A stretch of 64,000 nt of DNA from Candidatus Saccharimonadota bacterium (GCA_026707815.1 JAPOWB010000009.1:6752-70751), one strand, 5' to 3'; positions 44,803 through 63,420 are shown, numbered from the stretch's first letter. The notes: a model not told the origin generated them from the letters alone. Numbers and translations are program-made.

Positions 44803-44880
44803 ATAGGCTCCAGTGTGTCAAGACCTATGCCAGAATGTATCTCGCAGGAAATTGCCCCTCTGTTTTGCAAGGGGGAAAGG

Positions 44881-44910
44881 ATAATCTATTATAATCTAAT
44901 ATAATCTAAT
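44881..44910 (+). repeat. three tandem 10-bp units (ataatctatt ataatctaat ataatctaat)
   Basis: Read directly. The array ends 5 nt before the ATG at 44916 and lies in the divergent Fic-Fic intergenic region. Each junction creates a TATAAT. Confidence 0.85.
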
Positions 44911-44915
44911 ATATA

Positions 44916-45995
44916 ATGAGTGATAGATTCTTAAATTTTAATTTTATCATGGATTATGACAAATTACTTGAATCCCTGCCAACCAGTTTAATAGGCGCAA
45001 TCGCCCGGATTGACGAATTGAAGGGTAGGTGGATCGGTGGATGCGACTTAAGTCCGCGGACTGTCGAGAATCTGCGACGTTCAACTCTGATAACTTCCGC
45101 TGGAGCGTCGACGCGTATTGAAGGATCAAAAATGACCGATAAAGACATTGAGGATTACTTGTCGGGACTGAAGATTCAAAAGTTCGCCGAGCGAGACCGT
45201 CAAGAGGTGAGTGGCTATCATGAAACCTTGGAGCTAATCTTTAATCAATACCAAGAACTGGCTTGGACAGAAAACAATATCAAATACCTACACACCCGAC
45301 TGCTACAGTACTCAGCTAAAAATGAAAATCATCGTGGCAATTATAAAACGATAGACAATCGCATCGAAGCAGTTGATGCGAACGGCAAATTGATTTCGGT
45401 CATTTTTGAAACTACTCCAGTTTATTTAGTTGGCAAGGAGATGTCGGAATTGATTGACTGGTCGCAATCGGCTGAGCGGCATCACCCTCTGCTAGTTTTA
45501 TCCGTCTTTACCATCAGTTTTTTGAAAATTCATCCCTTTTTGGACGGAAACGGTCGGCTATCGCGACTTTTGACCAACCAGTGGCTGCTAAGACATGGCT
45601 ACGACTACACTCCATTTGTTTCTCACGAGAAGCTGATTGAAGATTCCAAAGCTGACTATTACCGAACGCTCAGAGACAGTCAAATAACTTTCGGTCGAGC
45701 TGATGAATCAGTTGGCGCTTGGACTGAATATTTTCTCAGAATTTTGTTGTTCCAAGCTCAAAAAGCTGTTGATCTGCTTGATGTCACCAGAATTGAGGAC
45801 GAGCTATCGCCTAAGCAATTGGCTATCTGGCAGTATTTGAGCCGAGTTGATCAAGCGACTCCTGGGCAAATCAGCAAGGAAATTCAGGTCGCTCGCATGA
45901 CGGTCAGCCAAGCCTTGACCAAGTTGCTTGGCTTGGGTCTAATTGTCCGTCTCGGTCAAGGACGAACAACTTCTTACCGCCGAAGGGTTAGATAA
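44916..45995 (+). CDS. Fic-domain protein fused to a C-terminal winged-helix (MarR-like) domain
   Basis: Fic motif HPFLDGNGRLSRLL and inhibitory-helix motif STRIEGS. C-terminus is QISKEIQVARMTVSQALTKLLGLGLIVRLGQGRTTSY. An alternative start exists at 44949. Confidence 0.85.
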   Translation: MSDRFLNFNFIMDYDKLLESLPTSLIGAIARIDELKGRWIGGCDLSPRTVENLRRSTLITSAGASTRIEGSKMTDKDIEDYLSGLKIQKFAERDRQEVSGYHETLELIFNQYQELAWTENNIKYLHTRLLQYSAKNENHRGNYKTIDNRIEAVDANGKLISVIFETTPVYLVGKEMSELIDWSQSAERHHPLLVLSVFTISFLKIHPFLDGNGRLSRLLTNQWLLRHGYDYTPFVSHEKLIEDSKADYYRTLRDSQITFGRADESVGAWTEYFLRILLFQAQKAVDLLDVTRIEDELSPKQLAIWQYLSRVDQATPGQISKEIQVARMTVSQALTKLLGLGLIVRLGQGRTTSYRRRVR

Positions 45996-47082: not shown

Positions 47083-48024
47083 TTATGGGGTAAAAATCAA
47101 ATTACCATCTGCATCATAGCGTTCAGTAGCAGTCAAAATACCATCAGCACTATAGTATTCTGCTTTAATCAAATTACCATCAGCATTGTATTCATACTGA
47201 ACATACCCCTGTGAATTACCATCTGCATAATATTCTTCGTATTTAATCACATTACCATCTGCATCATACCATTCAGCACCAATCAACCTATCATTAGCAT
47301 TATAGCGTTCTCTTTTAATCCTATTACCATCAGCATTGTATTCAGACTTATTATATCCCCTTAAATTACCATCAGCACCATAGTCTTCCCTTTTAATCAC
47401 ATTACCATCAGCATCACAAATATATTTTCTAGTATCTGTATCTTTGGGACATTCTGTTTTATCTTTGGGGGCATCAACTGGAGCTTTATCAACTGGCTTT
47501 ACTTCATCTTTTACTTCATCATCACCAATCTCATTACCATCTGCATCATAAAGTTCTGTCTTAATCTGATTACCATCAGCGTCATAGCGTTCTGTCTTAA
47601 TCTGATTACCATCAGCATCATATTCATATTTGATATACCCCCCTAAATTACTATCGGCATCATAGTATTCTCTTTTAATTAAATTACCATCAGCACCATA
47701 GTATTCTCTTTTAATTAAATTACCATCAGCGTCATATTCATATAGGCGATAACTTGTTAAACTACCACCTGCATTATAGTCCTCTCTTTTAATCTCATTA
47801 CCATCAGCGTCATATTTAAACTTGGTATATCCTTCTGAATTGCCATCAGCATCATGCCATTCAGCTTTAATCAAATTACCATCTGCATCACAAATATATT
47901 TGTTGGTATCTGTATCTTTAGGGCATTCAGCTACCTCTTTACTAGTCAAAGCATGGATGGTTATACCTATCCCAAGCAGTAAGACAATGATACTGGTAAG
48001 AATAATGATTAGCTTTTTATTCAT
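47083..48024 (-). CDS. small membrane-anchored YD-repeat (Rhs-like) protein with internal two-fold duplication
   Basis: 313 aa. N-terminal TM helix, then about 20 copies of Y-[DG]-A-D-G-N-x-I-K-x-E. ECPKDTDT[NR]KYICDADGN occurs twice. Confidence 0.8.
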   Translation of the reverse strand: MNKKLIIILTSIIVLLLGIGITIHALTSKEVAECPKDTDTNKYICDADGNLIKAEWHDADGNSEGYTKFKYDADGNEIKREDYNAGGSLTSYRLYEYDADGNLIKREYYGADGNLIKREYYDADSNLGGYIKYEYDADGNQIKTERYDADGNQIKTELYDADGNEIGDDEVKDEVKPVDKAPVDAPKDKTECPKDTDTRKYICDADGNVIKREDYGADGNLRGYNKSEYNADGNRIKRERYNANDRLIGAEWYDADGNVIKYEEYYADGNSQGYVQYEYNADGNLIKAEYYSADGILTATERYDADGNLIFTP

Positions 48025-48392: not shown

Positions 48393-49466
48393 ATGAATAT
48401 GCTCTTAGATTCTTCCTTCAAGCTAGGTTACAATGATGTACTTCTAAGACCTAAAAGATCAGCTCTGGGTAGCCGCAAAGAAGTTAATATACATAGAGAA
48501 TTAAAATTCAAACATTCTCAACACACCTTTGAAGGTTTACCAATTATAGCCTCAAATATGGATGGAGTAGGAACATTTAAAATGGCACAAACATTGTCAA
48601 AATATAAGATGCTAACTGCTCTAACAAAACATTTAGAAATTGATGATTTAATTAACCATTTTAAAAAAGATAATCAATATACAATTTACTCCTTAGGTAT
48701 TAAGGATGAAGATTTCCAAAAATTTAAAGCAGTTAATCAAGCAGTTACAATTAAATGGGTGTGCATTGATGTTGCTAATGGTTACTCAGAGAGGTTTATT
48801 GACTTTGTAGCTAATTTTAGACAAGAATTTCCAGATAAAATTATTATTGCTGGTAATGTCGCCACATCAGATATTACCGAAGAATTAATTCTCAAAGGAG
48901 CTGACATTGTCAAGGTTGGCATCGGTCCAGGATCTGCCTGCACAACCCGTATAGTTACAGGAATAGGGGTTCCTCAACTATCAGCAGTTATCGAATGTGC
49001 TGACGCCGCTCATGGTTTGGGAGGTTTAATTATTGCAGATGGTGGTTGCAATACAACTGGCGATATTGTTAAAGCTTTTGCTGGAGGTGGAGACTTTGTC
49101 ATGCTGGGTGGTTTTTTGGCTGGAACAGACCAAAGTCAAAAAGAAGTTATTGAAAAAAAGTTTATAACTTCTCAAGTTGATAATAATAATCAGATTATTT
49201 ATGAAACTAAAAAGTTTATTCAATTTTATGGCATGTCATCAGAAACAGCTAATAAGAAATATAGTGATGGTATCAAAGATTATAAAACTTCTGAAGGCAG
49301 GGAAGTTCTAGTCGATTATAAAGGTTCTGTTGACAAAATAGTCCAACAAATCATTGGGGGATTGCGATCAGCCTGCACTTATGTAGGGGCTATTAATTTA
49401 AAAGTCTTGCCCAGATGTGCTACCTTTGTCCGTTGCAATAACACGCATAATAAAATATTGGAATAA
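48393..49466 (+). CDS. guaC: GMP reductase
   Basis: 357-aa IMPDH/GMPR-family barrel without a CBS insert. N-terminus is GuaC-like, and the active-site loop [11 protein letters not shown] is present. Confidence 0.85.
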
Positions 49467-51292: not shown

Positions 51293-52567
51293 ATGACTCA
51301 AAAACAAGCTCTAACTATTCTCCAGCAAGGTCATAATGTTTTCTTAACTGGAGCAGCTGGTTCAGGCAAAACTTTTTTACTGGATAAATTCATCAAATTA
51401 ATTTCTGCTACCGAAAAACGTATAGCAGTTACTGCCACTACAGGCTTAGCTGCCACTCATCTTAGAGGGCGAACAATCCATTCTTGGGCAGGAATTGGCA
51501 TTGCTGATAAATTGACTCGTAGTCAATTAAATAAAATCATAACATCGACTAAATTGCAGGAGAATATACGAACAACAAATATCTTAATTATAGATGAAAT
51601 CTCCATGTTACATGATTTTAGATTAGATATGATTGACCAAGTTTGCCGAGAAGTTCGACGTAATCCGAAAGTTTTTGGAGGGCTACAAGTTGTTTTAAGT
51701 GGAGATTTTTTTCAACTGCCACCGATTACTAAAGACGCCAACTTAAAGTTAGAAAAAACTAGTTTTATCACTAATTCTGAAGCTTGGCAAGCAGCTGATT
51801 TTAAAATTTGTTATTTGAGGGAACAACATCGACAAACTGATGACAATCAATTAACTGATATTCTTAATGCTTTAAGGAATAATGTTCTGACAAATCAGCA
51901 TGTTGATTTGCTAAGAAACCGCATTTTGCCCAACCCCGGCAATTTAACTGAATTACATTGTCATAATCTAGACATTGACCAAATTAACAAGAAAAGATTA
52001 GCTGAAATTCCGCATAAAGAATATCAATTTGCTGGAGAAAAATTAAATCCTCATAGAGATAAAAAATTACTAGATCAACTCTTAAGAAATTGCCTAGCCG
52101 AAGAATTGCTGAAGCTAAAACAAGATGCCCTAGTTATGTTTATTAAAAATGATACCCAGAATCAATATATAAATGGTAGTTTGGGTAAAATTAAGGGATT
52201 TCATTCTAGAGATGGTTATCCAATCATTGAACTTAATTCTGGTAAGACTATTTTTGTTGACTTGGCAACTTGGAGCATTACTCAAGATGAAGTTGAATTA
52301 GTCAGATTCAGACAACTCCCCTTAAAATTAGCTTGGGCTATGACTATCCACAAAAGTCAAGGTATGACTTTAGATGGGGCTTTTATAGATTTGTCAAAAG
52401 CTTTTGAGACTGGCATGGGTTATGTGGCTTTGTCTCGGCTTAAATCTTTAGAAGGTCTTTACTTAAAAGGTTTTAATGAAACTGCTCTGCAAATTAACCC
52501 AGAAGTCTTGCGAATTGATCAGTATTTTCAACAAGCTTCCAGACGGCTTGAGATGCAAGCATTTTAG
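51293..52567 (+). CDS. PIF1/RecD-like SF1B DNA helicase
   Basis: Walker A GAAGSGKTFLL, IIDEISML, VLSGDFFQLPPI and TIHKSQGMTLD. Confidence 0.85.
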   Translation: MTQKQALTILQQGHNVFLTGAAGSGKTFLLDKFIKLISATEKRIAVTATTGLAATHLRGRTIHSWAGIGIADKLTRSQLNKIITSTKLQENIRTTNILIIDEISMLHDFRLDMIDQVCREVRRNPKVFGGLQVVLSGDFFQLPPITKDANLKLEKTSFITNSEAWQAADFKICYLREQHRQTDDNQLTDILNALRNNVLTNQHVDLLRNRILPNPGNLTELHCHNLDIDQINKKRLAEIPHKEYQFAGEKLNPHRDKKLLDQLLRNCLAEELLKLKQDALVMFIKNDTQNQYINGSLGKIKGFHSRDGYPIIELNSGKTIFVDLATWSITQDEVELVRFRQLPLKLAWAMTIHKSQGMTLDGAFIDLSKAFETGMGYVALSRLKSLEGLYLKGFNETALQINPEVLRIDQYFQQASRRLEMQAF

Positions 52568-52700
52568 CTGTGTAAAACAGAGGAAAATATTAAATGTCGA
52601 TGAGTAATCTTTAGTTTAGAAATGGAATATTGACACGAACCTTATAAATATCAGTTATCATATAATGAATAGAAGATAGAGGTTGAATTATTTTTGGGAC

Positions 52701-53366
52701 ATGTCCAATCAACTGAAGTACCCCACCTTATTTATTATCATCGGCTGGCCAAGTAGTGGTAAAACTTATCTAAGTCGCCAACTTGCTAAAGATTTTCAAA
52801 TCAATAAAGTCCATGCCGAACAAATCAGGGCAACTATTTTTCATAGTCGCTATTCAACTAATGCAGAAGAAAACTTAATGGCTCAGAAAATAGGTTTTCT
52901 ATTGATAGAAGAATTGATGAGATTGAAGCTATCAGTAATTTGTGATATCGATGTTCAAGCCAGTAATCAAAGGTTCAAATTGCAGAAATTAGCTCAAGCA
53001 TACGACTTTAAAACTGTGGTTATCTATCAGCAAGTCGATAAACAAACAGCTTGGCTGAGATGCCAAAATCGTAATATTCATCACCCGGATGATAGATATG
53101 CCCTCAAACTAAGTCAGAAAAGCTTCAATACCTTGTGTTCTCATTTTCAGCCCCCAAAACCTCAAGAATCAGTCATTGTAGTCTCGGGTAACCATGATTA
53201 TAAAACTCAAAAACAAACCATTCTGCGACGATTAATTGAGCTACAGTATTTAGTTAATCCAAAAGAGATAATTAGAGATATTCCGAAGCCAGGATTGGTT
53301 AATTTAATTGTCCCCGTGGTTGATAAAAATAATCCTCAAAATAATCTCAATATTACTATTGAATAA
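52701..53366 (+). CDS. P-loop kinase-like protein (AAA_33 / zeta-toxin-like NTPase fold)
   Basis: ATG at 52701. P-loop IIIGWPSSGKTYLSRQLA. Small size typical of nucleotide or polynucleotide kinases. Confidence 0.65.
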   Translation: MSNQLKYPTLFIIIGWPSSGKTYLSRQLAKDFQINKVHAEQIRATIFHSRYSTNAEENLMAQKIGFLLIEELMRLKLSVICDIDVQASNQRFKLQKLAQAYDFKTVVIYQQVDKQTAWLRCQNRNIHHPDDRYALKLSQKSFNTLCSHFQPPKPQESVIVVSGNHDYKTQKQTILRRLIELQYLVNPKEIIRDIPKPGLVNLIVPVVDKNNPQNNLNITIE

Positions 53367-53370
53367 TATT

Positions 53371-54051
53371 GTGACTTATCAAAAAACTTACCCGAAAATT
53401 GGCACAGTCACTTATTGTGCCAGAAAGCAAAAGCGTATTAGATTATCTTTTCAAGATTCTAGTATTAGAGTTAGTTATCCTTCTCGACTTGGTTTCAAAA
53501 GAGCTGAAGTATTTGTCCAGTCTAAAATAGATTGGATTCTTGAACATAAGCCGAACAATAATTTGATCAGAGATCAAATTAAAATTGGGCAATATCATAA
53601 GTTGTATCTACAAGATTCTTGCTTAAATGTCGGGATTTTTAAACGACAAATTTGTGCTCCCAAGCAAAATATAGAATTGATTGAAAAACTCATTAAGCAA
53701 GCTTTGAAAATAGAAGCTGAAATATTACTCAAACCCTTATTTAACAACTTGAGTCAAAAATTGCAGCTACCAGCCACAAGATTGCGGATTAAATACATGA
53801 AATCTCAATGGGGAAGTTGTAATCATCGAGGCGTTATTAGTCTCAATAGTGCTTTAGTTTACTTACCAAAAAGAATTATTGAAGCAGTTATTATTCATGA
53901 GCTGTGTCATCTAAAATTTTTAAATCATAGTTCTGATTTTTGGCAATTAGTCATCAAACATCAACCCAATCATCTTGCCCTCAGACAAGAATTAAAGACT
54001 TATCCTATTCATCTGGTTATTACAAAAAAATCTTCCAAAAACAAAAATTGA
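53371..54051 (+). CDS. YgjP/DUF45-family zinc metallopeptidase-like protein
   Basis: HExxH in VIIHELCHLKFLNHSSDFW. The likely GTG start at 53371 comes just after the upstream stop at 53366. Confidence 0.78.
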   Translation: MTYQKTYPKIGTVTYCARKQKRIRLSFQDSSIRVSYPSRLGFKRAEVFVQSKIDWILEHKPNNNLIRDQIKIGQYHKLYLQDSCLNVGIFKRQICAPKQNIELIEKLIKQALKIEAEILLKPLFNNLSQKLQLPATRLRIKYMKSQWGSCNHRGVISLNSALVYLPKRIIEAVIIHELCHLKFLNHSSDFWQLVIKHQPNHLALRQELKTYPIHLVITKKSSKNKN

Positions 54052-54092
54052 CTGATGCCTTAAAGTGCTTTATACTAAAAGAACATAAGTTT

Positions 54093-54129
54093 GATGCTTG
54101 ACTTTCGGTCTCTAGAGCATCTTTTTTTT
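54093..54129 (+). terminator. Rho-independent terminator
   Basis: GATGCT...AGCATC outer stem with inner GAC/GTC pairing, followed by a T8 run at 54122-54129. Confidence 0.6.
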
Positions 54130-54176
54130 ATGATTTATTTATAACTTGTACTTGATTAGATAGATAAGAGAATTTC

Positions 54177-54602
54177 ATGCCCCAAACTAAAGGACGTCGA
54201 CGGAATTTAAAGACCGTCCGAGAAGTCGCCGAAAATAAACGTCAATCCAGCCAAAAACCAGCTTGGTTTAAAAGATTGTTGAAAGGATTTTTTAGCCCCT
54301 TGCTTAAATTATTGACTTGGTTAAATCAGCCTTTAGCTACCCATCAACAAGTTGCAAGCAGCAACTGGACTACAGCTTGGACTAAACAAAGATCAATGAT
54401 GCCTAAATATTTCAGACAATCATTTGCTGAAATTAAATTAGTCACTTGGCCGACATTTCCAGTTGCTATGAGATTAACTTTTGCAGTCGTCATTTTCACT
54501 TGTATCTTTGCCGGACTGATAGCTGGACTAGATTGGGTCTTGTCTAAAATTTTTGAAGAAATTATTATTAATGAAGGTCAAAATCTAAAGAATTTATTTT
54601 AA
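54177..54602 (+). CDS. secE: preprotein translocase subunit SecE with ~80-aa basic N-terminal extension
   Basis: C-terminal FAEIKLVTWPT... followed by a single TM helix. Located directly upstream of nusG. Confidence 0.8.
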   Translation: MPQTKGRRRNLKTVREVAENKRQSSQKPAWFKRLLKGFFSPLLKLLTWLNQPLATHQQVASSNWTTAWTKQRSMMPKYFRQSFAEIKLVTWPTFPVAMRLTFAVVIFTCIFAGLIAGLDWVLSKIFEEIIINEGQNLKNLF

Positions 54603-54605
54603 GTT

Positions 54606-55157
54606 ATGGATGATAAAATTGATACTAAACAGCGCTGGTATGCCATACACACTTACAGTGCTTATGAAGAACGAGTTGCTCAAGAAATTCGGCAAAGAAT
54701 TGCTAATTTAGGGATTGCAGATAAAATCACTGATATTCTAGTTCCTAAAGAAAATCAGATTGAATTGAAAAACGGCAAACGACGGATTGTAGCTAAAAGA
54801 ATTTTTCAGGGCTATGTTTTGATTCGTATGCAGTTAGACAAAGAAACTTGGCATACAGTTAGAAGTACTCCCAATGTCACAGGCTTTGTCGGTGATGGCA
54901 GTAATCCAGTCCCAATTGAAGAAGAAGAAATTAGAAAAATAGTTAAGCGAATGGAGATTGAAGAGCCAAAACATAAGATTAATTATCAGGTTGGAGAAGC
55001 AGTGAAAATCACTGATGGACCTTTCCGAGATCAAGAAGGTTTGGTCTCCGAGATAGATGCTCAAAAAGGAACCTTAACTGTTTTAATCAGTGCTTTTGGT
55101 CGAGAAACGCCCATGAAATTGGATGCTTTACAAGTAAGTAGTTTAAAAAATGAATAG
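54606..55157 (+). CDS. nusG: transcription termination/antitermination factor NusG
   Basis: NGN domain (WYAIHTYSAYEERV) and KOW domain (GEAVKITDGPFRDQEGLV). Confidence 0.95.
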   Translation: MDDKIDTKQRWYAIHTYSAYEERVAQEIRQRIANLGIADKITDILVPKENQIELKNGKRRIVAKRIFQGYVLIRMQLDKETWHTVRSTPNVTGFVGDGSNPVPIEEEEIRKIVKRMEIEEPKHKINYQVGEAVKITDGPFRDQEGLVSEIDAQKGTLTVLISAFGRETPMKLDALQVSSLKNE

Positions 55158-55596
55158 TTCGAATCAACCTAAAACCAAAGTTACTGCCCGTCTAAAAATG
55201 CGCCTCAAAGGCGGTCAAGCTAGTGCAGCCCCACCAGTTGGTAGTACCTTAGGTCAATATAAAGTTAATATGATGGATTTTATTAATCCTTTTAATGAAG
55301 CTACTAAAGATCGTCAAGGACAAGATTTAACAGTCCATATTTTCATTCATGAAGATAATGCTCTAAGTTGGCGAATCGTCAGTCAACCAACTGATGAATT
55401 GATTCGCCAAGCTCTTAAAGTCGACAAGGGGAGTGGTAAGCCTCATTTAGAGAAATTAGAGCAGAAACTTAGCCAGAACCAATTAACAGAAATTGCTCAA
55501 GCTAAACTCAATGACAGTAATACAGATAACCTTGAATCTGTTAAAAAGATGGTAGCTGGCACAGCTAGAAGTATGGGAGTAGAAATAGAGGGCTAG
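55150..55596 (+). CDS. rplK: 50S ribosomal protein L11
   Basis: LKGGQASAAPPVGSTLGQ motif. Confidence 0.95.
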   Translation: MNSSNQPKTKVTARLKMRLKGGQASAAPPVGSTLGQYKVNMMDFINPFNEATKDRQGQDLTVHIFIHEDNALSWRIVSQPTDELIRQALKVDKGSGKPHLEKLEQKLSQNQLTEIAQAKLNDSNTDNLESVKKMVAGTARSMGVEIEG

Positions 55597-55601
55597 AGAA
55601 T

Positions 55602-56723
55602 ATGACTAAAAAAACTGAACTTATTGAAAAAGCTCAAAAACTGGATATTAAGACTGATGGCTTAACCATTGCTAAACTTGAAGAAGCTATAGCAAAAAAG
55701 CAAGAAACAGACCAGAAAGACTTCAATAAAAAAACTACTAGCCCCTTAAGGGAAAAACCAATTAAAAATCTCAAAGAGTTATCTGAGAAAATCTTGGGTA
55801 AAAAAGCTACCCCAAAGCCCTCCAGTAAACCCAAAAAACTTCTTAAGAAAAAACCTAACACAACAGATAAAAAGCTAGATCAGAGTTTTGCTAAAGCTGG
55901 TAAAAGAAGTCAGAAAAATGTTGAAGCCAACAAGGCTGAACAGGAGAGACAGGCTCGCAAATTAAGTTCTCAATCCAAAACTAGCTCTATTCAACCGACT
56001 CAACAAAAGCTGATTAAATCGACCAGATCTCGTCTGCAAAGGCGGTCAAAAAAATACCGTCAAGTTTTTCCAAAGGTTGATAAAAAGAAAAACTATGAAA
56101 CAAAAGAAGCTTTAGAATTAATTATTCAAACTTCGACGACTAAATTTGATAGTAGTGTTGATATCTCTGTAGGTTTGGGAGTCGACGTCAAACAAGCCGA
56201 TCATAATATTCGAGACTACGTAGTCTTACCAGCTGGGACTGGTAAAAATTTACGAATTGCCGTTTTCGCAGAGGACAAGGAAACTCAACAAGCTCTTCAA
56301 TCAGGGGCTGACATTGCCGGCAGGGACGTATTTTTACAACAATTAGATAAGGGTATTCTTAATTTTGACGTTTTAATCACCATGCCTAATTTAATGGTTG
56401 AATTGAGTAAATATGCTAAGATGCTTGGACCAAAAGGTTTAATGCCTAACCTCAAATCAGGTACTATCACTAAAGATATTCCAGCCACCATCGAAGAGAC
56501 TAGGGCAGGGCGAACTGAATACCGAGTTAATGAGAATGGTATTATCAGTCTTTCTATTGGTAAAGTCAGTTTCGGTACGGTTAAGCTTTTAGATAATTTC
56601 CAAGCTGTTTTAAGTAGTATCAAAGACAATAAGCCAACTAGTTTGAAGGGCTCATATATTAAAACTATCTCCGTTAGCACAACTATGGGACCAAGTCTTA
56701 AGATTGCTACTTCAACTCATTAA
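55602..56723 (+). CDS. rplA: 50S ribosomal protein L1 with ~135-aa N-terminal extension
   Basis: The canonical L1 core begins near RRSKKYRQVFPKVDKKKNY...KFDSSVD...LPAGTGK. The upstream 135 aa lie in the same ORF with no internal start codon. Confidence 0.9.
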   Translation: MTKKTELIEKAQKLDIKTDGLTIAKLEEAIAKKQETDQKDFNKKTTSPLREKPIKNLKELSEKILGKKATPKPSSKPKKLLKKKPNTTDKKLDQSFAKAGKRSQKNVEANKAEQERQARKLSSQSKTSSIQPTQQKLIKSTRSRLQRRSKKYRQVFPKVDKKKNYETKEALELIIQTSTTKFDSSVDISVGLGVDVKQADHNIRDYVVLPAGTGKNLRIAVFAEDKETQQALQSGADIAGRDVFLQQLDKGILNFDVLITMPNLMVELSKYAKMLGPKGLMPNLKSGTITKDIPATIEETRAGRTEYRVNENGIISLSIGKVSFGTVKLLDNFQAVLSSIKDNKPTSLKGSYIKTISVSTTMGPSLKIATSTH

Positions 56724-56889
56724 TTTTTTTGTCAATCAAAGAATCCATCTTTAATATATTATTTAAGAAAAAATTGTTTTATTATAGCTATTTGAATAGT
56801 TTGAAAGCTGGTATAAACATTGAAATTATGAAATTTTATTGTGTTATGATAGAGCTGTAATTTACTGATCGAATTAAAAAAATACTTTT

Positions 56890-58074
56890 GTGAAAATTAC
56901 TATCAATAAGAAAGAGTCAGGCATCTATCTCCTAGCAATCCTTATCTGGTTTGGGGCAATAGTTCTTTTTAATCTAATTAACCAAGATACCGAGCAATTA
57001 GATAAGCAAACACAAATTAGCGTCAAGGCTGAAGAACAACTAATTAGATATTATGATCAAGCTGTTCTTGATATTGACGATTATCCCCATATCAAAGATT
57101 TGATGCCTCTAGGTTTTATTGATGTCTTGAAAAAAACTTCTCAATTAGATCCTAGTTTTTATAATCAAAAACAGCAAATATGTGGTATCGCTGGTTGGTC
57201 ATGCCAAGATTCCGATTGGCAAAGACTGAAGACTTTAGCTTCAAGATATGATTTAAATTATATTTCTTTGGAAGCTCAATTTTTGTATATGAATCATCAA
57301 CTGGAAAATATTGAATTCAATATTAATCTGAAATTAGATAACTTACCCTCGGCTTATAGAAATTTCTATTATCATTTGATTGAGACTCATATCATTATTC
57401 GACCAGTACCAAAACCTGCTGTTGCGACAATTGCTCCAATATCAACAAATAACAGCTCCAGTCACATTAATCGTCAGCCTCAGATTCTACCGACTAAACA
57501 ACAGGGCTGTTGGAGACAATCCAATCAATATATTAAGACAGTCAAGCAGACAGATAGTCAGGGATATTTATTAAAACCAGTAGAAGTTCTATCTAGAAGT
57601 GAGGCGGGGGAAATGACTACAACCTATGTTCATCGCTGTATCCATGCTTTGGCTTTAAAACTTTTAAAAGATTACAATTCATCTCAAACTAATCCCCAAT
57701 ATAAACTTGGATTTAGTGGTTGGCGAAGCCATTATCATCAAGTCCAAGCTCGATTGCGACCAGTTAATGGATGCATAACTGTTGATGCTGAGCATCCACT
57801 TTATACTTATCAAGTTTACGAAGCTGGATCAACGGAGATTTGCACTACACCAGTTGCTAAACCCGGTCATTCTAATCACCAAGATGGTTTAGCCTTGGAT
57901 TTTTATTGTCTTGAAGGGGGATCTCTAACTCGAACTAATTGTAATAAAGCTTATGAATGGCTGAGATGTCATGGAGCTAAATATGGGTTAGTGGAATTCA
58001 TTAAAGAGCCTTGGCATTGGGATTATTTTACTCAAGTTAATAACGGTCAAAAACGATTAGTGCGTAATTGTTAA
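56890..58074 (+). CDS. membrane-anchored peptidase M15 (VanY-like D,D-carboxypeptidase fold) with N-terminal lysozyme-like region
   Basis: GTG start and a TM helix. Zn-site motifs GHSNHQDGLALD and EPWHWDY. The mid region ICGIAGW...LEAQFLYMNHQLEN resembles phage-tail-lysozyme-type domains. Confidence 0.78.
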   Translation: MKITINKKESGIYLLAILIWFGAIVLFNLINQDTEQLDKQTQISVKAEEQLIRYYDQAVLDIDDYPHIKDLMPLGFIDVLKKTSQLDPSFYNQKQQICGIAGWSCQDSDWQRLKTLASRYDLNYISLEAQFLYMNHQLENIEFNINLKLDNLPSAYRNFYYHLIETHIIIRPVPKPAVATIAPISTNNSSSHINRQPQILPTKQQGCWRQSNQYIKTVKQTDSQGYLLKPVEVLSRSEAGEMTTTYVHRCIHALALKLLKDYNSSQTNPQYKLGFSGWRSHYHQVQARLRPVNGCITVDAEHPLYTYQVYEAGSTEICTTPVAKPGHSNHQDGLALDFYCLEGGSLTRTNCNKAYEWLRCHGAKYGLVEFIKEPWHWDYFTQVNNGQKRLVRNC

Positions 58075-58084
58075 AGACAGATCT

Positions 58085-59038
58085 TTAATTACTTGTGCAA
58101 CCAAGACCATCTTTATTAGCATCTAACTTGTAGGGATCAATATTGATTTGTTTGACAATAACTGAAGTTTCAATGTCTTTGCAGTTGAGATCCCCAACAA
58201 TAGGTAAGCATGGCTCATAGGCTGGATGACAATCACCTAAGTAGGGGATTGAACTAAATTCCGGATTGTCTGGGGTTGAAATTTGATTATCTTGACAAGA
58301 TTGGGGATGCCATAAGCCCAGTTGCGACAATTGAGCTTGCCGTTGAGCATCCTTAAATTGCGTTTGATACTTGTAAGGAATTTTATAAGTGTATTCATGA
58401 GCATATCCTTGTTTAATCATTTCCAAATTATAATGAAAACCACTTTTTAAAAAGACATATCTGAGTAGTCGACCATATCTATCTCTTTGACCTTGACTAG
58501 GATCAGATTCTAAATAAACAAATTTATTTAATAATAATTGCTTAGCTTTGGTTGAGGCTTCTAAGCCAAAACACTCAACTGGTTTGCGAGGATCAACTGT
58601 CTCTGGAGTATCGAGTCCGATTAATCGCAATCTTTCAATCTGATCATCTATTAAAACATCAATGGTATCGCCATCGACAACTTTCATCACTTGATAATAT
58701 TGATTATTGTCTACCGAACGAGATGACAATGAGGATGCAGTCAAAGACATATCTGAATCTATTAAGTTTTCAGAATCTGTTGAATTAGTTTGATTATCTA
58801 AGTCTATTGAGGGCGGGGAGCTTGGATTGAATGAGATATTATCTAGATTATTAGATTCTGAAATCGGAACAATTGCCGGAATATTCCTTCCTTCATCTGA
58901 ATTACCTTTATTCGATGATTGCTTAAAATTAAAACCCAGCAGAAAAATAGTGATAAGCAGAATTATTAAGCTAATAGCAATTAATTTGAATTGCTCTGAG
59001 ATAATTTGATTAAACCAATTTTTTATTCGTTGCAACAT
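58085..59038 (-). CDS. secreted/anchored staphylococcal-nuclease-like thermonuclease with C-terminal Excalibur Ca-binding motif
   Basis: TM/signal anchor. SNase blocks VVDGDTIDV, RLIGLDTPE and RYGRLLRYVF. C-terminal DANKDGLGC matches DxDxDGxxC. Confidence 0.85.
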   Translation of the reverse strand: MLQRIKNWFNQIISEQFKLIAISLIILLITIFLLGFNFKQSSNKGNSDEGRNIPAIVPISESNNLDNISFNPSSPPSIDLDNQTNSTDSENLIDSDMSLTASSLSSRSVDNNQYYQVMKVVDGDTIDVLIDDQIERLRLIGLDTPETVDPRKPVECFGLEASTKAKQLLLNKFVYLESDPSQGQRDRYGRLLRYVFLKSGFHYNLEMIKQGYAHEYTYKIPYKYQTQFKDAQRQAQLSQLGLWHPQSCQDNQISTPDNPEFSSIPYLGDCHPAYEPCLPIVGDLNCKDIETSVIVKQINIDPYKLDANKDGLGCTSN

Positions 59039-59134
59039 TCTTGACTAATGTTTTTTTTGGAATTATTCTCTTAATTTCATTCTATAGATTTAAAAATTGT
59101 ATAGTAAAAATTATATGATACAAACATCTCACAA

Positions 59135-59162
59135 TTGACTTCAAATTCAATGGAGACATAAT
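59135..59162 (+). promoter_or_regulatory. candidate promoter for rplJL (TTGACT-16-CATAAT)
   Basis: TTGACT at 59135-59140 and CATAAT at 59157-59162. Confidence 0.35.
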
Positions 59163-59164
59163 CA

Positions 59165-59237
59165 CCTTGCAATTTAAGATGTAATCAGATAGACTTTGAA
59201 ATTAGTGCAAGGAGCTAGAGACAGTGTCTAGGTTTTT
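59165..59237 (+). promoter_or_regulatory. candidate structured rplJ leader (long hairpin plus terminator-like hairpin)
   Basis: CCTTGCA at 59165-59171 pairs with TGCAAGG at 59206-59212. It is followed by the CTAGAGAC-AGT-GTCTAG hairpin and a T5 run at 59233-59237. Confidence 0.3.
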
Positions 59238-59334
59238 CTTATATAAGAGAAGGACTTTTAAATATGGCATCGAAGCTTGATTATCTCCTTAATTAATATT
59301 TATTTAAAAAAACTAGTTTAAAGTATTTGCCACA

Positions 59335-59859
59335 ATGGCTATCAGTCGTTCTCAAAAAGAAACCATCATTGAGGAAGTTAAAAACTTATTCCGAACTTCT
59401 AAGCTAACTGTTCTGGTTTATTATGAAGGTTTGACTGTTTCTGAATTTCAAAATTTAAGAAGTCAGGCTCGAAAGTCTGAGGTTACTTTGAAAGTAATTA
59501 AAAACAGGTTAGTCAAACAAGCTTTAAAACAATCAGCTAAAACTGACTCTGTCGTTGCTGACCAATTAAAGGGAATGTTGCTTTATGTTTTTAGTTCGTC
59601 TGATGAAATTATTGGAGCTCAAATCATTAAAAATTTTGCTAAAACCTCAAAAGCTAATTTAGATTTTGTGGGAGCAATTTCTGAAGCTGGTAATTTTCTA
59701 GCTAAAGAGCAGGTTGCTCAATTAGCTAATTTAGCTCCCAAACCTCAATTGATAGCTCAGACAGGTGCATATTTATTGAGTCCTTTGACTCAATTGCAAA
59801 ATATATTAGCTGGGAGATTACCCCAGTTATTGAATAATCTTAAGTTAAATAAAATTTAA
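59335..59859 (+). CDS. rplJ: 50S ribosomal protein L10
   Basis: 174-aa L10-like N-terminus (SRSQKETIIEEVKNLF...). Followed by rplL. Confidence 0.9.
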   Translation: MAISRSQKETIIEEVKNLFRTSKLTVLVYYEGLTVSEFQNLRSQARKSEVTLKVIKNRLVKQALKQSAKTDSVVADQLKGMLLYVFSSSDEIIGAQIIKNFAKTSKANLDFVGAISEAGNFLAKEQVAQLANLAPKPQLIAQTGAYLLSPLTQLQNILAGRLPQLLNNLKLNKI

Positions 59860-59888
59860 AATAATAGATTTCAGGAGGTCTAAATTTT

Positions 59889-60287
59889 ATGAATAAAACT
59901 ACAAAAACTGATTTAAAAAAATTAGCTGAACAACTAATTAATTTAAGCGTCATTGAGGTCAATGATTTAAATCAAATCTTAAAGGATGATTATGGTATTG
60001 AGGCTATGGCAGCTCCAGTAGCTACTGCTCCTAGTTCGTCTTCGGATTCTGAATCAGCAACTGGAGGAGAAGAAAAACAGCAATTCAGTGTTCTATTGAA
60101 AGATGCTGGTGAACAGAAAATAGCTATCATCAAAGCTGTCAAAGAATTATTGGAAATGCCTTTGGGTGAAGCAAAAACTTTAGTCGAAGGTACGCCAGCC
60201 ACTATTAAAGAAGCTGTAGCTAAAGCAGAGGCTGAAGAAATTAAATCTGAATTAGAAAAGAAAGGAGCGGTGGTTGATCTAGTCTAA
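59889..60287 (+). CDS. rplL: 50S ribosomal protein L7/L12
   Basis: Ala/Ser hinge followed by the C-terminal domain KIAIIKAVKELLEMPLGEAKTLVEG... Confidence 0.95.
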   Translation: MNKTTKTDLKKLAEQLINLSVIEVNDLNQILKDDYGIEAMAAPVATAPSSSSDSESATGGEEKQQFSVLLKDAGEQKIAIIKAVKELLEMPLGEAKTLVEGTPATIKEAVAKAEAEEIKSELEKKGAVVDLV

Positions 60288-60376
60288 AGATCAATCAGAC
60301 CTCGGTTTGTATTTTAAGATATAAATGCTAGAATGTAATCTAGTCTTTAAGAAACATATGCGAGAAAAATAAAAAG

Positions 60377-60886
60377 ATGGCTGAGATACCAGATAAACAG
60401 CTAGAGAGATTTAGAAATTTAGTTGGCAAAGCTAATACGGCTTTACAGGCAGCTGAAGAATTATTGACCAGCATCATTGGTGATGATTTTCAGGGCATGG
60501 ATACTCAGAGACTTGAAGAAGCGGGCAAGGTTATTGAGGGAGTCTTCAATGGTCAAAACATGGTTGCCGATGATGGCAAAATTTTTCCAATTCAGGCTAA
60601 TTATGCCAGTAAGTCTCGTTTAGTTCAGGGTGACCGTATGAAACTAACGATTAGTGATAATGGTTCATTTACATATAAGCAAATCGGACCGATTGAGAGA
60701 ACTCAGGTCATTGGATTATTATCCTTACAGGATGGTCGCTATTATGTTCAAGTTGGCAGTAAACGTTATCAAGTTCTCATTGCCAGTGTGACACACCATA
60801 AAGTTAAACAAGGTGATCAGATTAGCATCACCATTCCTCAAGACAATCCAGATGCTGAATGGGCAGCTATTGAATCTCCTTTATAG
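60377..60886 (+). CDS. hypothetical protein
   Basis: 169-aa ORF with ATG start. No motif recognised. Confidence 0.6.
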   Translation: MAEIPDKQLERFRNLVGKANTALQAAEELLTSIIGDDFQGMDTQRLEEAGKVIEGVFNGQNMVADDGKIFPIQANYASKSRLVQGDRMKLTISDNGSFTYKQIGPIERTQVIGLLSLQDGRYYVQVGSKRYQVLIASVTHHKVKQGDQISITIPQDNPDAEWAAIESPL

Positions 60887-61069
60887 ATTCAAATGTTTTT
60901 AGGCAAGTAGGTATTTTTTTGCAAGAGATAGCAAGGGGTAATTTTCAGTCCCTCGCCTGCATGTGTAATACTTGTTAAGAAACCAGTGTAAAAGTTTTGT
61001 AAAACTGTTCTTTAGCAACCTTGCTGACATATTCAACTAATATAATAGATATACTAATCACTGAATATT

Positions 61070-62047
61070 ATGAGTTTAGTCCTATATCGTAAATATCGCC
61101 CCAAAAATTTAGATGAAATTGTCGCCCAAAAAGGTATCGTAACCGTCTTAAAAGCTGCTCTAAAACGCCAAAGTTTAGGGCATGCTATTTTATTGACTGG
61201 TCCTAGAGGTATTGGCAAGACTAGTTTAGCTCGTATCTTGGCTCATAAATTGAATCAGATTGATTATTCTTTAGATCAAACACCTATAGATATTATCGAA
61301 ATTGACGCTGCTAGTAATGGGCGGATTGATGAGGTCAGAGATTTAAGAGAGAAAATCAAATTAATGCCTTTGGAACTAAAATATAAGATTTACATTATTG
61401 ATGAAGTTCACATGCTTACTAAAGAGGCTTTCAATGGTCTACTGAAAACCTTGGAAGAACCACCTCAACATGTCATCTTTATCTTGGCCACTACGGAAAT
61501 GCATAAAGTTCCAGCAACCATCATTAGTCGCTGTCAACATTTCAACTTACGTCTAATTTCTGATCAAGAAATCTCTGAACACTTAAGCCAAATTGCTAAG
61601 AAAGAAAAAATAGATATTACTGATTCGGCTGTGGCTAGCTTGGCCCAAGTTGCTCGGGGTAGTCTAAGAGATGCTTTGAGTCTTTTAGATCAATTAGCTA
61701 CCTTAAACAAAACAATCGACCAAGATCTTATAGAACATATTTTAGGTTTACCACCACAGGATTTAACCCTAGAATTACTAAAAACTATTAAAAATGATGA
61801 TTTTCAAAAGGTTATGGAATGCTATCAGAAATTAATGGCTCAAGGAGTAGATGCGGTATTATTGGCTCACCAACTGGCTTATCACCTCAGATTAGAATTG
61901 CAAAAACTTGATAATAAACAAGCCATTGGGCGAATTCTTCTTTTATTGGAAGACCTACTATTAATCTTTCAAGCTCATCAACCTCAGACCAGTCTAGAAA
62001 TTATTTTACTCAAGCATACTCAATCAGGAATAAAAATGAAGTCATGA
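61070..62047 (+). CDS. dnaX: DNA polymerase III gamma/tau subunit, short form
   Basis: GPRGIGKTSLARI, IIDEVHMLTKEAFNGLLKTLEEPP and SRCQHF. At 325 aa it has no long tau tail. Confidence 0.9.
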   Translation: MSLVLYRKYRPKNLDEIVAQKGIVTVLKAALKRQSLGHAILLTGPRGIGKTSLARILAHKLNQIDYSLDQTPIDIIEIDAASNGRIDEVRDLREKIKLMPLELKYKIYIIDEVHMLTKEAFNGLLKTLEEPPQHVIFILATTEMHKVPATIISRCQHFNLRLISDQEISEHLSQIAKKEKIDITDSAVASLAQVARGSLRDALSLLDQLATLNKTIDQDLIEHILGLPPQDLTLELLKTIKNDDFQKVMECYQKLMAQGVDAVLLAHQLAYHLRLELQKLDNKQAIGRILLLLEDLLLIFQAHQPQTSLEIILLKHTQSGIKMKS

Positions 62048-63420
62048 ATCAAAAAACTACTCCCAAGCAACCTCAAGATATCCAAGCCGAAGCCGCCTTG
62101 CTGGGTTCAATTTTATTAAATCCTCTAGCTATTGTTGAAATAGATGATTTAGTCCAATCAATAGATTTCTTCGATAAAAAACATGAATATATTTATCAGG
62201 CAGCTTTGTCTGTTTATCAGGAGGGTAAAGAGGTAGATATTTTAACAGTCGGCAGTCAATTAAAAAATAGCAAGAAATTTAGTTCAATCGGAGGCAATGA
62301 TTATCTCAATCAATTGATCAATATTGTACCAACAGCAGCCCATATTAAAAGTTATGCCCAGATCATCATCAGTAAAGCCCGACGAAGGGGCTTAATTAAA
62401 GCTTCTCAATCCTTAAATGAATTAGCCTTTGATGAAAATAAAAATCTCGATCAAATTATAGAAGAGGCTGAATTAAGCTTATTTAATATTTCTCGGCAGC
62501 ATGTTGAACAAAATGTTCTCCGTCTCCAAGAGATCATGGCTGAGAGTTTTGAACAACTCAAACAAGCTCGAGAGAATAAGACAGCTCTTAGAGGTTTGTC
62601 GTCTGGTTTCTCTAATTTAGACAACTTCTTGGCTGGTTTTCAAAAAAGCGATTTGATTATTATTGCTGCTCGACCAGGAATGGGTAAAACTGGTTTCGCC
62701 TTGAATCTAGCCTATAATATTGCTTTTAATATTGAATCTAAACAACAAAACACTGTTCTTTATTTCTCATTAGAAATGAGCAACGATCAACTCTTGGATA
62801 GACTATTATCAATGCATACTGGCATTGACAACTGGCAATTAAGAACTCGCCATCTCAGAGATAGTGATTTTCATAAAATTGAACAAGCTCAATCTGAATT
62901 AGCTAAGGCAGATCTTTATATTGATGACACACCGGGTTTAAATATTAGTGAGATACGCACCAAAACTCGGAGGTTGAACTATAAACAGCCAGTCGACTTA
63001 GTAGTCGTTGACTATTTGCAATTAATGAGAGGATTAAATCCTGGCCCGACCGAAAATCGAGTAGCAGAAATTACTGAAATCAGTCGAAGTCTCAAACTCC
63101 TAGCCAAAGAATTGAACATCCCTGTTATTGCTCTTTCTCAATTAAGTAGACAAACAGAAACTCGTGAAAGTAAACAACCAGCTTTAGCTGATTTGAGAGA
63201 TAGTGGAGCAATTGAACAGGATGCCGATATTGTGGCCTTCCTCTACAGAGAAGAATACTATAATCCTGATTTAGAAGATAAGAAAGGATTATTGGAATTT
63301 CAAGTCAAAAAACACCGTAATGGTCCTGTTGGAAAAATCACCTTTTACTTCAATAAAGAAATTCAACGTTATTTGGTGCTAGATAAAGAATCCATGCAAC
63401 CAGCTGACATTAAAAAATAA
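62044..63420 (+). CDS. dnaB: replicative DNA helicase DnaB
   Basis: N-terminus AEAALLGSILLNP, Walker A ARPGMGKTGFALN, and LSQLSRQTE. Confidence 0.95.
   Translation: MNQKTTPKQPQDIQAEAALLGSILLNPLAIVEIDDLVQSIDFFDKKHEYIYQAALSVYQEGKEVDILTVGSQLKNSKKFSSIGGNDYLNQLINIVPTAAHIKSYAQIIISKARRRGLIKASQSLNELAFDENKNLDQIIEEAELSLFNISRQHVEQNVLRLQEIMAESFEQLKQARENKTALRGLSSGFSNLDNFLAGFQKSDLIIIAARPGMGKTGFALNLAYNIAFNIESKQQNTVLYFSLEMSNDQLLDRLLSMHTGIDNWQLRTRHLRDSDFHKIEQAQSELAKADLYIDDTPGLNISEIRTKTRRLNYKQPVDLVVVDYLQLMRGLNPGPTENRVAEITEISRSLKLLAKELNIPVIALSQLSRQTETRESKQPALADLRDSGAIEQDADIVAFLYREEYYNPDLEDKKGLLEFQVKKHRNGPVGKITFYFNKEIQRYLVLDKESMQPADIKK

Follow-up and report, generated by a model that had tools for sequence, protein, structure and literature searches.

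Two hydrolase genes in the variable rplA-rplJ gap of a Candidatus Saccharibacteria genome: a putative wall peptidase related to T4SS-linked enzymes and a predicted surface nuclease

In E. coli, the ribosomal protein genes rplKA and rplJL-rpoBC form separate transcription units. We analyzed a 64,000-nucleotide stretch of DNA (the window) from Candidatus Saccharimonadota bacterium (GCA_026707815.1, JAPOWB010000009.1:6752-70751), a Candidatus Saccharibacteria metagenome-assembled genome (MAG), in which two open reading frames (ORFs) occupy positions 56724-59334, the gap between rplA (55602-56723) and rplJ (59335-59859). One encodes a peptidase of 394 amino acids (aa), and the other a 317-aa staphylococcal-type nuclease (SNase). 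NCBI contains entries from 'Candidatus Saccharibacteria bacterium' MAGs that match each protein at 100% identity and already carry the names 'M15 family metallopeptidase' and 'thermonuclease family protein'.

Patescibacteria have an origin-proximal type IV secretion system (T4SS) locus (PMC12102498), and in Southlakia epibionticum (S. epibionticum) the genes SEML1_0007 and SEML1_0006 are located directly downstream of virB4 (PMC10633639 supplement). SEML1_0007 is a 1,113-aa protein with a DD-peptidase fold at aa 951-1105, whereas SEML1_0006 combines PF18013 and PF01832 with a cysteine-proteinase domain (PMC10633639 supplement); both are essential in epibiotic growth (PMC10633639 supplement; PMC12102498). 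PrgK and TraG of monoderm T4SSs are membrane-anchored hydrolases that open the cell's own wall locally (PMC12102498). As for the nuclease, Saccharibacteria have previously been proposed to scavenge nucleotides with an 'external micrococcal nuclease' (Starr et al. 2018, PMC6031116).

An earlier note on this DNA had read the two genes as an attack-and-scavenge module inserted into an otherwise universal ribosomal cluster. We consider it reasonably probable that they are instead two unrelated, separately transcribed genes for surface hydrolases that share a variable gap between rplKA and rplJL without forming a co-evolved module, the nuclease serving in salvage and the peptidase being an orphan enzyme that acts mainly on the cell's own wall.

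The gap was compared among 80 metagenome loci whose L10 proteins are 41-48% identical to that of the window, and its size was assessed in the 57 loci with at least 1.5 kb of sequence upstream of rplJ. In none of these 57 Saccharibacteria-like loci is rplA less than 1.5 kb from rplJ; it is found 1.7-6.7 kb upstream in 15 loci, and elsewhere lies beyond the sequence covered. The same method recovered the canonical order nusG-rplK-rplA-(22 bp)-rplJ-rplL-rpoB in a Bacteroidia locus (L006), the only locus from a scan of genome contigs with the L1 protein, which served as a positive control. Because no relative among the 57 has rplA within 1.5 kb of rplJ, the split between rplKA and rplJL is ancestral to the clade, and the window is distinguished solely by the content of the slot. 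The claim that the pair itself divides an otherwise intact rplKAJL cluster is therefore not supported. As in the canonical nusG-rplKAJL-rpoBC cluster, secE-nusG-rplK-rplA and rplJ-rplL are each intact and co-oriented in the window. Unlike in that cluster, rplA is 2.6 kb from rplJ, a distance that ranges from 1.7 to more than 7 kb among all the Saccharibacteria-like relatives; rpoBC is ~50 kb away, and a 169-aa ORF follows rplL.

The slot is occupied by non-ribosomal genes in every relative examined. Its usual contents are dcd (dCTP deaminase), tmk or a tmk-thyX fusion of ~790-800 aa, and an M20 peptidase gene, which is often just upstream of rplJ (for example, L048 2603-5714, L042 5419-6767 and L007 4673-5794). 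Searches with tblastn across the related loci detected tmk-thyX in 39, dcd in 26 and M20 in 27. The rplA-rplJ gap thus appears to be a conserved variable slot in Saccharibacteria that usually holds thymidylate-metabolism genes. We sought dcd, tmk, thyX and the M20 peptidase in the 64-kb window and found none of them, and the sequence available upstream of rplJ, which extends for up to 7 kb, contains no homologue of either gap protein at any of the 80 related loci. The synteny comparison proposed in the earlier note therefore shows a slot of variable content from which this insertion is absent in relatives, an outcome that the note itself had listed as counting against its reading.

The rplJ leader also differs. 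Rfam L10_leader (RF00557) is found upstream of rplJ in five of six relatives' loci, with scores of 43-70 bits (L010 6233-6354, L017 6816-6945, L009 889-1014, L016 6488-6615 and L007 5814-5951); these leaders include an attenuator-like hairpin and a T-run. A scan of positions 56600-59450 with Rfam at E<=10 gave nothing credible and no L10 leader, and a clade-specific covariance model made from the L10 leaders of 29 relatives yielded an unconvincing 7.6 bits (E=0.25) upstream of rplJ in the window. The autoregulatory L10 leader may have been lost or altered in the rearrangement that brought the nuclease gene into a head-to-head orientation with rplJ. By eye only, a possible remnant of the conserved core can be seen at ~59217-59275, AGAGACAGTG ... 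ATGGCATCGAAG.

These observations could be taken to mean that the dTTP-synthesis genes dcd, tmk and thyX were replaced in the slot by a surface nuclease and a T4SS-derived wall hydrolase, with loss of the L10 leader as well, which seems improbable to us. On that view, the hydrolase would have passed from a secretion machine to a new task, that of gaining access to host nucleic acids, and, should dcd and thyX really be missing from the whole genome, the exchange would represent a switch from making thymidylate to stealing it.

The gene order within the slot bears on the proposed module, in which the peptidase would open the wall of a neighbour or host and the nuclease would harvest nucleic acids, the two being coupled and favourably placed in a ribosomal neighbourhood. 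In favour of the module, the two enzymes have intact catalytic motifs and are expected to be exposed at the surface, the family of the peptidase has ties to a host-interaction machine, the T4SS, and Saccharibacteria are salvage-dependent epibionts (PMC6031116; PMC10633639). The arrangement is also kept on all four contigs that carry an identical nuclease. However, these four contigs are from the same or nearly the same organism, so that near-identical genomes do not constitute independent evidence, and the arrangement recurs nowhere else: the pair is absent from the 80 related rplJ loci and from ten homologue contexts, in which homologues of the peptidase and the nuclease are never neighbours. 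The two genes are convergent, with stop codons 10 bp apart, and therefore are not co-transcribed; neither a shared strand nor recurrence of the pair, as would be expected of an operon-type module, was observed. Moreover, both enzymes would be tethered to the membrane of the producer, limiting their reach. Since relatives have neither gene in the slot, the genes are convergent and homologues occur in unrelated places, the module has no comparative support, and it is in our judgement an improbable account of the pair. The ribosomal neighbourhood, to which the earlier note had drawn attention, is a weak argument, given that the nuclease gene is on the opposite strand and that rplKA and rplJL-rpoBC are separate in E. 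coli too.

We therefore discuss the two genes as separate entities. Each encodes a protein with basic residues before a single N-terminal hydrophobic helix (maximum 2.6-2.7 on the Kyte-Doolittle scale, 19-residue windows) and with multiple cysteines after it. The nuclease gene (58085-59038, minus strand) is the sole minus-strand gene between 53308 and 63420. Its product matches Pfam SNase PF00565 over aa 136-244 with 79.6 bits (cutoff 21), and SNase chains in the PDB match at E ~3e-18. The catalytic domain (aa 113-249; 58292-58702) was aligned residue by residue with S. aureus nuclease, in which D21, R35, D40, T41, E43 and R87 correspond to D124, R138, D143, T144, E146 and R190. Thus, the Ca2+ ligands (equivalents of D21, D40 and T41) and the catalytic R35, E43 and R87 equivalents are all present. 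The hydrophobic helix spans aa 16-38 (58925-58993), with a Kyte-Doolittle maximum of 2.73 (19-residue window), and is not a lipoprotein signal, because no cysteine is near it. A low-complexity linker rich in Ser, Asn and Asp (18, 12 and 8 of 72 residues) follows at aa 41-112 (58703-58918). The anchored staphylococcal-type nuclease converging on the peptidase, as described in the earlier note, is thus in keeping with the domain match, the aligned catalytic residues and the one N-terminal helix.

The remainder of the nuclease is a Cys-rich tail (aa 250-317; 58088-58291) that contains C270, C277, C286 and C314 and ends in a degenerate Excalibur-like loop, DANKDGLGC. The tail does not match Excalibur PF05901 even at E<=10, whereas the tails of close homologues score 17-22 bits in four of five cases tested (cutoff 22), the fifth having no match. 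The tail resembles Excalibur in its C-terminal place on a secreted nuclease and in its cysteine framing. The motif DxDxDGxxCE of that domain reads DANKDGLGCT here (D-x-N-x-D-G-x-x-C), with Asn for the Asp at the third position and Thr for the final Glu, and an upstream module, CHPAYEPCLP...DLNC, is foreign to PF05901. From these comparisons, the tail is probably a diverged Excalibur-like module and not a callable member of PF05901, so that the Excalibur assignment in the earlier note is only partly confirmed. A fragment consisting of the Cys-rich tail module alone, CNPNYSPCIP...DLDC...LDRDSDGMGCES, is found in one relative, at L077 5664-5801 (minus strand), between rplL and a homologue of the 169-aa ORF. 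The tail appears to be a mobile module on different secreted proteins.

The nuclease belongs to a very large family, with at least 7,340 members at E<=1e-3 among 8,000 candidates scored. Named homologues are from Saccharibacteria, Parcubacteria or Patescibacteria MAGs, and those on long contigs lie among unrelated genes. Scores remained below the equivalog cutoffs for NucI (119 versus 250 bits) and EcnA (77 versus 180 bits). Features that set the window enzyme apart from staphylococcal nuclease are its predicted membrane anchor, the long linker of low complexity and the Cys-rich tail at the C-terminus. With the external micrococcal nuclease of Starr et al. 2018 it shares the catalytic and Ca2+ residues of the SNase family, a predicted extracytoplasmic location and a presumed role in breaking down external DNA and RNA for salvage. 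It would be a Ca2+-dependent SNase-type enzyme on the outer face of the membrane, held there by its N-terminal helix and a flexible linker rich in Ser, Asn and Asp, and bearing a probably disulfide-rich, degenerate Excalibur-like tail. The organism presumably cannot make nucleotides de novo, and the enzyme most likely digests DNA and RNA outside the cell so that nucleotides can be salvaged or taken up. The salvage role suggested in the earlier note therefore agrees with published proposals for Saccharibacteria (PMC6031116) as far as the nuclease is concerned; its coupling to the peptidase is not supported.

Saccharibacteria are naturally competent (bioRxiv 10.1101/2023.05.02.539146). The nuclease might thus cut bound double-stranded DNA for uptake, as NucA and EndA do in Firmicutes, and not perform bulk nutrient digestion; its predicted tethering to the membrane, as opposed to release, agrees with such a function. 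However, no competence genes adjoin the nuclease gene, and the SNase fold differs from those of NucA and EndA. SNase enzymes also break DNA and RNA down to small products. We regard a role in competence as decidedly improbable, although it is compatible with salvage and the two are not mutually exclusive.

The peptidase gene (56890-58074, plus strand) starts with GTG and encodes a putative membrane-anchored zinc peptidase of the M15B (VanY/LdcB) type, as indicated by Pfam, PDB sequence and fold matches. Pfam VanY PF02557 matches aa 275-381 with 40.3 bits (cutoff 25), and the catalytic domain, delimited with Pfam VanY, alignment invariants and Foldseek, comprises aa ~200-394 (57487-58071). The zinc-ligand and catalytic motifs H330-x6-D337 and E373-x-x-H376 are invariant in the four closest homologues, as are the motif G277-W-R279-S-x3-Q284 and seven cysteines. 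The codons of the key residues are at 57724-57726 (R279), 57877-57879 (H330), 57898-57900 (D337), 58006-58008 (E373) and 58015-58017 (H376). We take R279, in the S/G-x-R-S-x3-Q motif, to be the Arg that binds the substrate carboxylate in LdcB and VanY structures.

The best sequence matches in the PDB are LdcB/DacB LD-carboxypeptidases (E 5e-6 to 2e-5), with VanY behind. An AlphaFold2 (AF2) model has a predicted local distance difference test (pLDDT) score of 75-96 over aa 200-390, and Foldseek aligns it with the VanY, LdcB, DacB and VanXY structures 5hnm, 4mph, 4nt9 and 4ox5 at E 3e-5 to 2e-4 and probability 1.00; the Hedgehog/DD-peptidase fold is thus recovered, with a template modelling score (TM(target)) of ~0.5 to VanY, LdcB and VanXY structures. 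The only strongly hydrophobic segment is a candidate signal anchor at aa 9-30 (56914-56979), after K7 and K8, where the 19-residue Kyte-Doolittle value reaches 2.57 (all other windows <=1.6), and the AF2 model has a helix starting at residue 7. These findings agree with the description of a membrane-anchored M15/VanY-type peptidase in the earlier note and, with the anchors and intact catalytic motifs in both gap proteins, suggest that neither protein is cytoplasmic or catalytically dead.

The peptidase shares the H-x6-D, E-x-x-H and G-x-R-S-x3-Q motifs with LdcB/DacB (LD-carboxypeptidases) and VanY (DD-carboxypeptidases) of MEROPS M15B, as well as their fold (Foldseek E ~3e-5 to 4mph, 4nt9, 5hnm and 4ox5) and the N-terminal membrane anchor of B. 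subtilis LdcB and VanY. Unlike these enzymes, it has seven extra conserved cysteines, an insertion at aa ~296-310 and a putative PF18013-like N-domain, and it stands outside any van operon; neither vanHAX nor vanRS was found near the gene. Its scores against the NCBIfam models for LdcB (NF041194), VanY (NF000086, NF000473 and NF000380) and VanXY are 18-27 bits, below cutoffs of 250-400. Judged by sequence, the protein is a member of the M15B superfamily and not an orthologue of any characterized enzyme.

The lysozyme-like N-terminal region reported in the earlier note is recognizable only when the family is considered as a whole. The window peptidase matches PF18013 (Phage_lysozyme2) weakly, with 12.7 bits and E=0.14 (cutoff 28.2), whereas seven of 11 family members match this profile, with a best E of 1.1e-5. 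We therefore place a diverged PF18013 (phage tail lysozyme)-like domain at aa ~73-140 (57106-57309) on the strength of profile matches at the family level only. The region holds the family-invariant residues of a CG(I/L)AGWxC...W..L motif; in the N-domain alignment, the invariant residues are S, C, G, W, C, W, L, Q, N and L, and no acidic residue (Asp or Glu) is invariant. The full-length AF2 model has a pLDDT of 74-83 across aa ~73-140. Searching PDB sequences with an N-domain profile produced nothing meaningful, and a fold search with a separate, poor AF2 model (pLDDT 60) was non-significant, with phi29 gp13 (3csr) second at E=7.6. The window's N-domain is the most degenerate of the family set: it lacks the family motif GLQHLYPYY and the domain's last helix, and has KKTS in place of the YSVS of the others.

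The family is rare: when aa 31-275 of the peptidase were searched exhaustively against 1.84 billion representatives, only 11 proteins were retrieved. Genomic context was examined for four members with the full architecture (P0003, P0004, P0125 and P0126). All four genes adjoin dnaN-dnaA and all follow a homologous ORF of ~950 aa, starting no more than 17 bases from its end (L001 3162-5999, L002 3142-6000, L088 3131-5986 and L091 4156-6984). The ~950-aa products are 37-40% identical and have no Pfam match at E<=0.1. In two of the four cases (P0125 and P0126; L088 and L091), the ~950-aa ORF is itself preceded by genes of the PrgI family and TraC-like and VirB4-like (P-loop_TraG/AAA_10) genes, so that these two hydrolases adjoin a T4SS cluster. 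The length of the ~950-aa ORF is close to that of the portion of SEML1_0007 (1,113 aa) ahead of its C-terminal DD-peptidase domain, which suggests gene fission or fusion between lineages.

The placement of these relatives matches the essential T4SS locus of S. epibionticum. SEML1_0006 and SEML1_0007 have the same domain types as the peptidase family (PF18013 lysozyme-like and a DD-peptidase/M15B fold) and the same locus position as its full-architecture members, downstream of virB4 and next to dnaN-dnaA; unlike in the two-domain family, the domains reside on separate, larger proteins. The monoderm VirB1 analogues PrgK (pCF10) and TraG (pIP501) have a membrane anchor like that of the window peptidase, but carry SLT, LytM and CHAP domains and no M15B domain. 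The rare PF18013-like and M15B hydrolase consistently ends an origin-proximal T4SS locus, and could be the source of the VirB1 function whose absence has been discussed in the literature.

Compared with these T4SS-linked hydrolases, the window copy is located outside a T4SS locus, without GLQHLYPYY and with a degenerate lysozyme-like domain; homologues of VirB4, PrgI, TraC-like proteins and the ~950-aa partner were not found in the 64-kb window. Its nearest relative, P0002, shares 51% identity with it over half of the window protein; P0127, whose gene is flanked by a SecDF-like gene and rmuC, shares 52% over aa 200-394. The lysozyme-like domain is missing from both. The three proteins form a subclade outside the T4SS locus, of which the window copy is a diverged orphan. 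The peptidase would thus be descended from rare two-domain wall hydrolases (PF18013 lysozyme-like plus M15B) that end the T4SS locus beside dnaN, would have left that locus, with its lysozyme-like domain now decaying, and may have become a stand-alone, membrane-tethered enzyme that uses zinc to cut D-Ala-containing bonds in peptidoglycan stem peptides, mainly in its own wall. Action on the own wall is favoured by analogy to PrgK and TraG (PMC12102498) and to LdcB.

Three points weigh against this interpretation. The rarity of the peptidase family argues against a general housekeeping role, the ~950-aa ORF corresponds to the N-terminal part of SEML1_0007 by matching length and position only, and the topology of both gap proteins was predicted from hydropathy and the positive-inside rule.

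Alternatively, the peptidase might be a wall-breaching enzyme of T4SS origin that attacks the host wall where the two cells are in contact, independently of the nuclease. Family rarity argues for an accessory role, T4SS-adjacent wall hydrolases are essential to the epibiotic growth of S. epibionticum, and the lysozyme-like and metallopeptidase architecture parallels the pairing in phi29 gp13-type proteins (PF18013 matches, with 3csr second and non-significant in the fold search). However, the N-terminal anchor recalls PrgK and TraG, which open the producer's own wall in monoderm T4SSs (PMC12102498); the lysozyme-like domain, besides being degenerate, lacks an invariant acidic residue; and the window copy is not beside any T4SS gene. 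We think host-wall action unlikely and retain the reading of two unrelated genes, with the peptidase acting mainly on the producer's own wall.

A further possibility is that the two genes were brought in by a mobile element that integrated recently, or belong to the remnant of a prophage. The slot content is unique to the window lineage, the peptidase weakly matches a phage tape-measure PHROG and the nuclease matches phage nuclease PHROGs. However, GC content over both genes is 0.30-0.39, the same as in the flanks, flanking direct or inverted repeats are not longer than expected by chance, no integrase, transposase or tRNA gene is adjacent, and for both proteins the nearest homologues are apparently encoded by chromosomal genes of Patescibacteria. 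The chance that the pair was delivered in this way is very slight, and a prophage origin was rejected, as the PHROG matches came without a prophage signal.

Overall, the finding is mostly ordinary: both proteins were already annotated as members of families that are known, and the whole clade has the ribosomal cluster split. What is new is the link of the peptidase family to T4SS hydrolases, which is modestly interesting. Orphan copies such as the one in the window appear to be losing their lysozyme-like domain. The variable slot, the T4SS-linked two-domain hydrolase and its orphan copies may be of use in work on Patescibacteria.

The genes across 53308-63420 are, in order, a YgjP-like metallopeptidase gene, secE, nusG, rplK, rplA, the 394-aa ORF, the 317-aa ORF, rplJ, rplL, the 169-aa ORF, a clamp-loader-like AAA+ gene and dnaB; all except the nuclease gene are on the plus strand. 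The AAA+ gene is DNA polymerase III clamp-loader (delta-prime/gamma-tau)-like, according to Pfam matches of an identical 325-aa gene in L087. The left border of the slot, rplA, encodes a 373-aa L1 protein (plus strand) with matches to Pfam Ribosomal_L1 (170 bits, aa 176-364) and TIGR01169 (273 bits, aa 147-371). A Lys-rich N-terminal extension of ~145 aa (55602-56036) precedes its L1 domain. In relatives, the spacing of ~330-710 nucleotides between rplK and the L1 domain suggests that rplA extensions vary in length, and these have no sequence similarity to that of the window.

Two spacers and a repeat accompany the two genes. The 166-bp spacer between rplA and the peptidase gene (56724-56889, plus strand) contains promoter-like hexamers at 56729-56757 and 56801-56829 in a consensus scan, and no terminator was predicted within it. 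The nuclease gene and rplJ diverge from a 296-bp spacer (59039-59334), in which TTGACT-16-CATAAT at 59135-59162 is the most promoter-like sequence that could serve rplJ. Promoter-like sites in the region are not more numerous than in shuffled sequence, and are thus weak evidence of promoters. The repeat is an AT-rich inverted one with 7-bp arms, TTAAAGA-CAGA-TCTTTAA (58071-58088), that was read from the sequence and covers both convergent stop codons. We rejected it as a meaningful structure, because its weak fold (-6.1 kcal/mol, z -1.3) is no better than that of shuffled sequence.

On the right border, the trio rplJ (59335-59859), rplL (59889-60287) and the 169-aa ORF (60377-60886), all on the plus strand, is kept in most relatives. 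The 169-aa ORF has no Pfam or NCBIfam match, and its homologues are found 3' of rplL, with 48-60% identity, in most related loci that reach far enough (for example, L010 7478-7948 and L017 8100-8570). It stands where other bacteria have rpoB, and may be a clade-specific member of the rplJL operon. rpoB and rpoC are instead located at 1888-9664, ~50 kb upstream of rplKAJL, and are followed by rpsL, rpsG, fusA and large ribosomal operons.

Several conflict-type genes are found nearby (43798-45995, 47083-48024 and 52683-53366). They encode two Fic/DOC-domain proteins, one of which is fused to a MerR helix-turn-helix domain, an RHS-repeat protein and a Zeta-toxin/KTI12-like P-loop kinase; a PIF1-like helicase is encoded at 51293-52567. 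The gene at 48393-49466, called a GMP reductase in the earlier note and cited there in favour of salvage, encodes a 357-aa protein that matches the IMP dehydrogenase (IMPDH)/GMP-reductase family over its full length, with no space for a CBS insert. Membership of this family stands, and the match is consistent with a GMP reductase; the protein may also be a CBS-less IMPDH.

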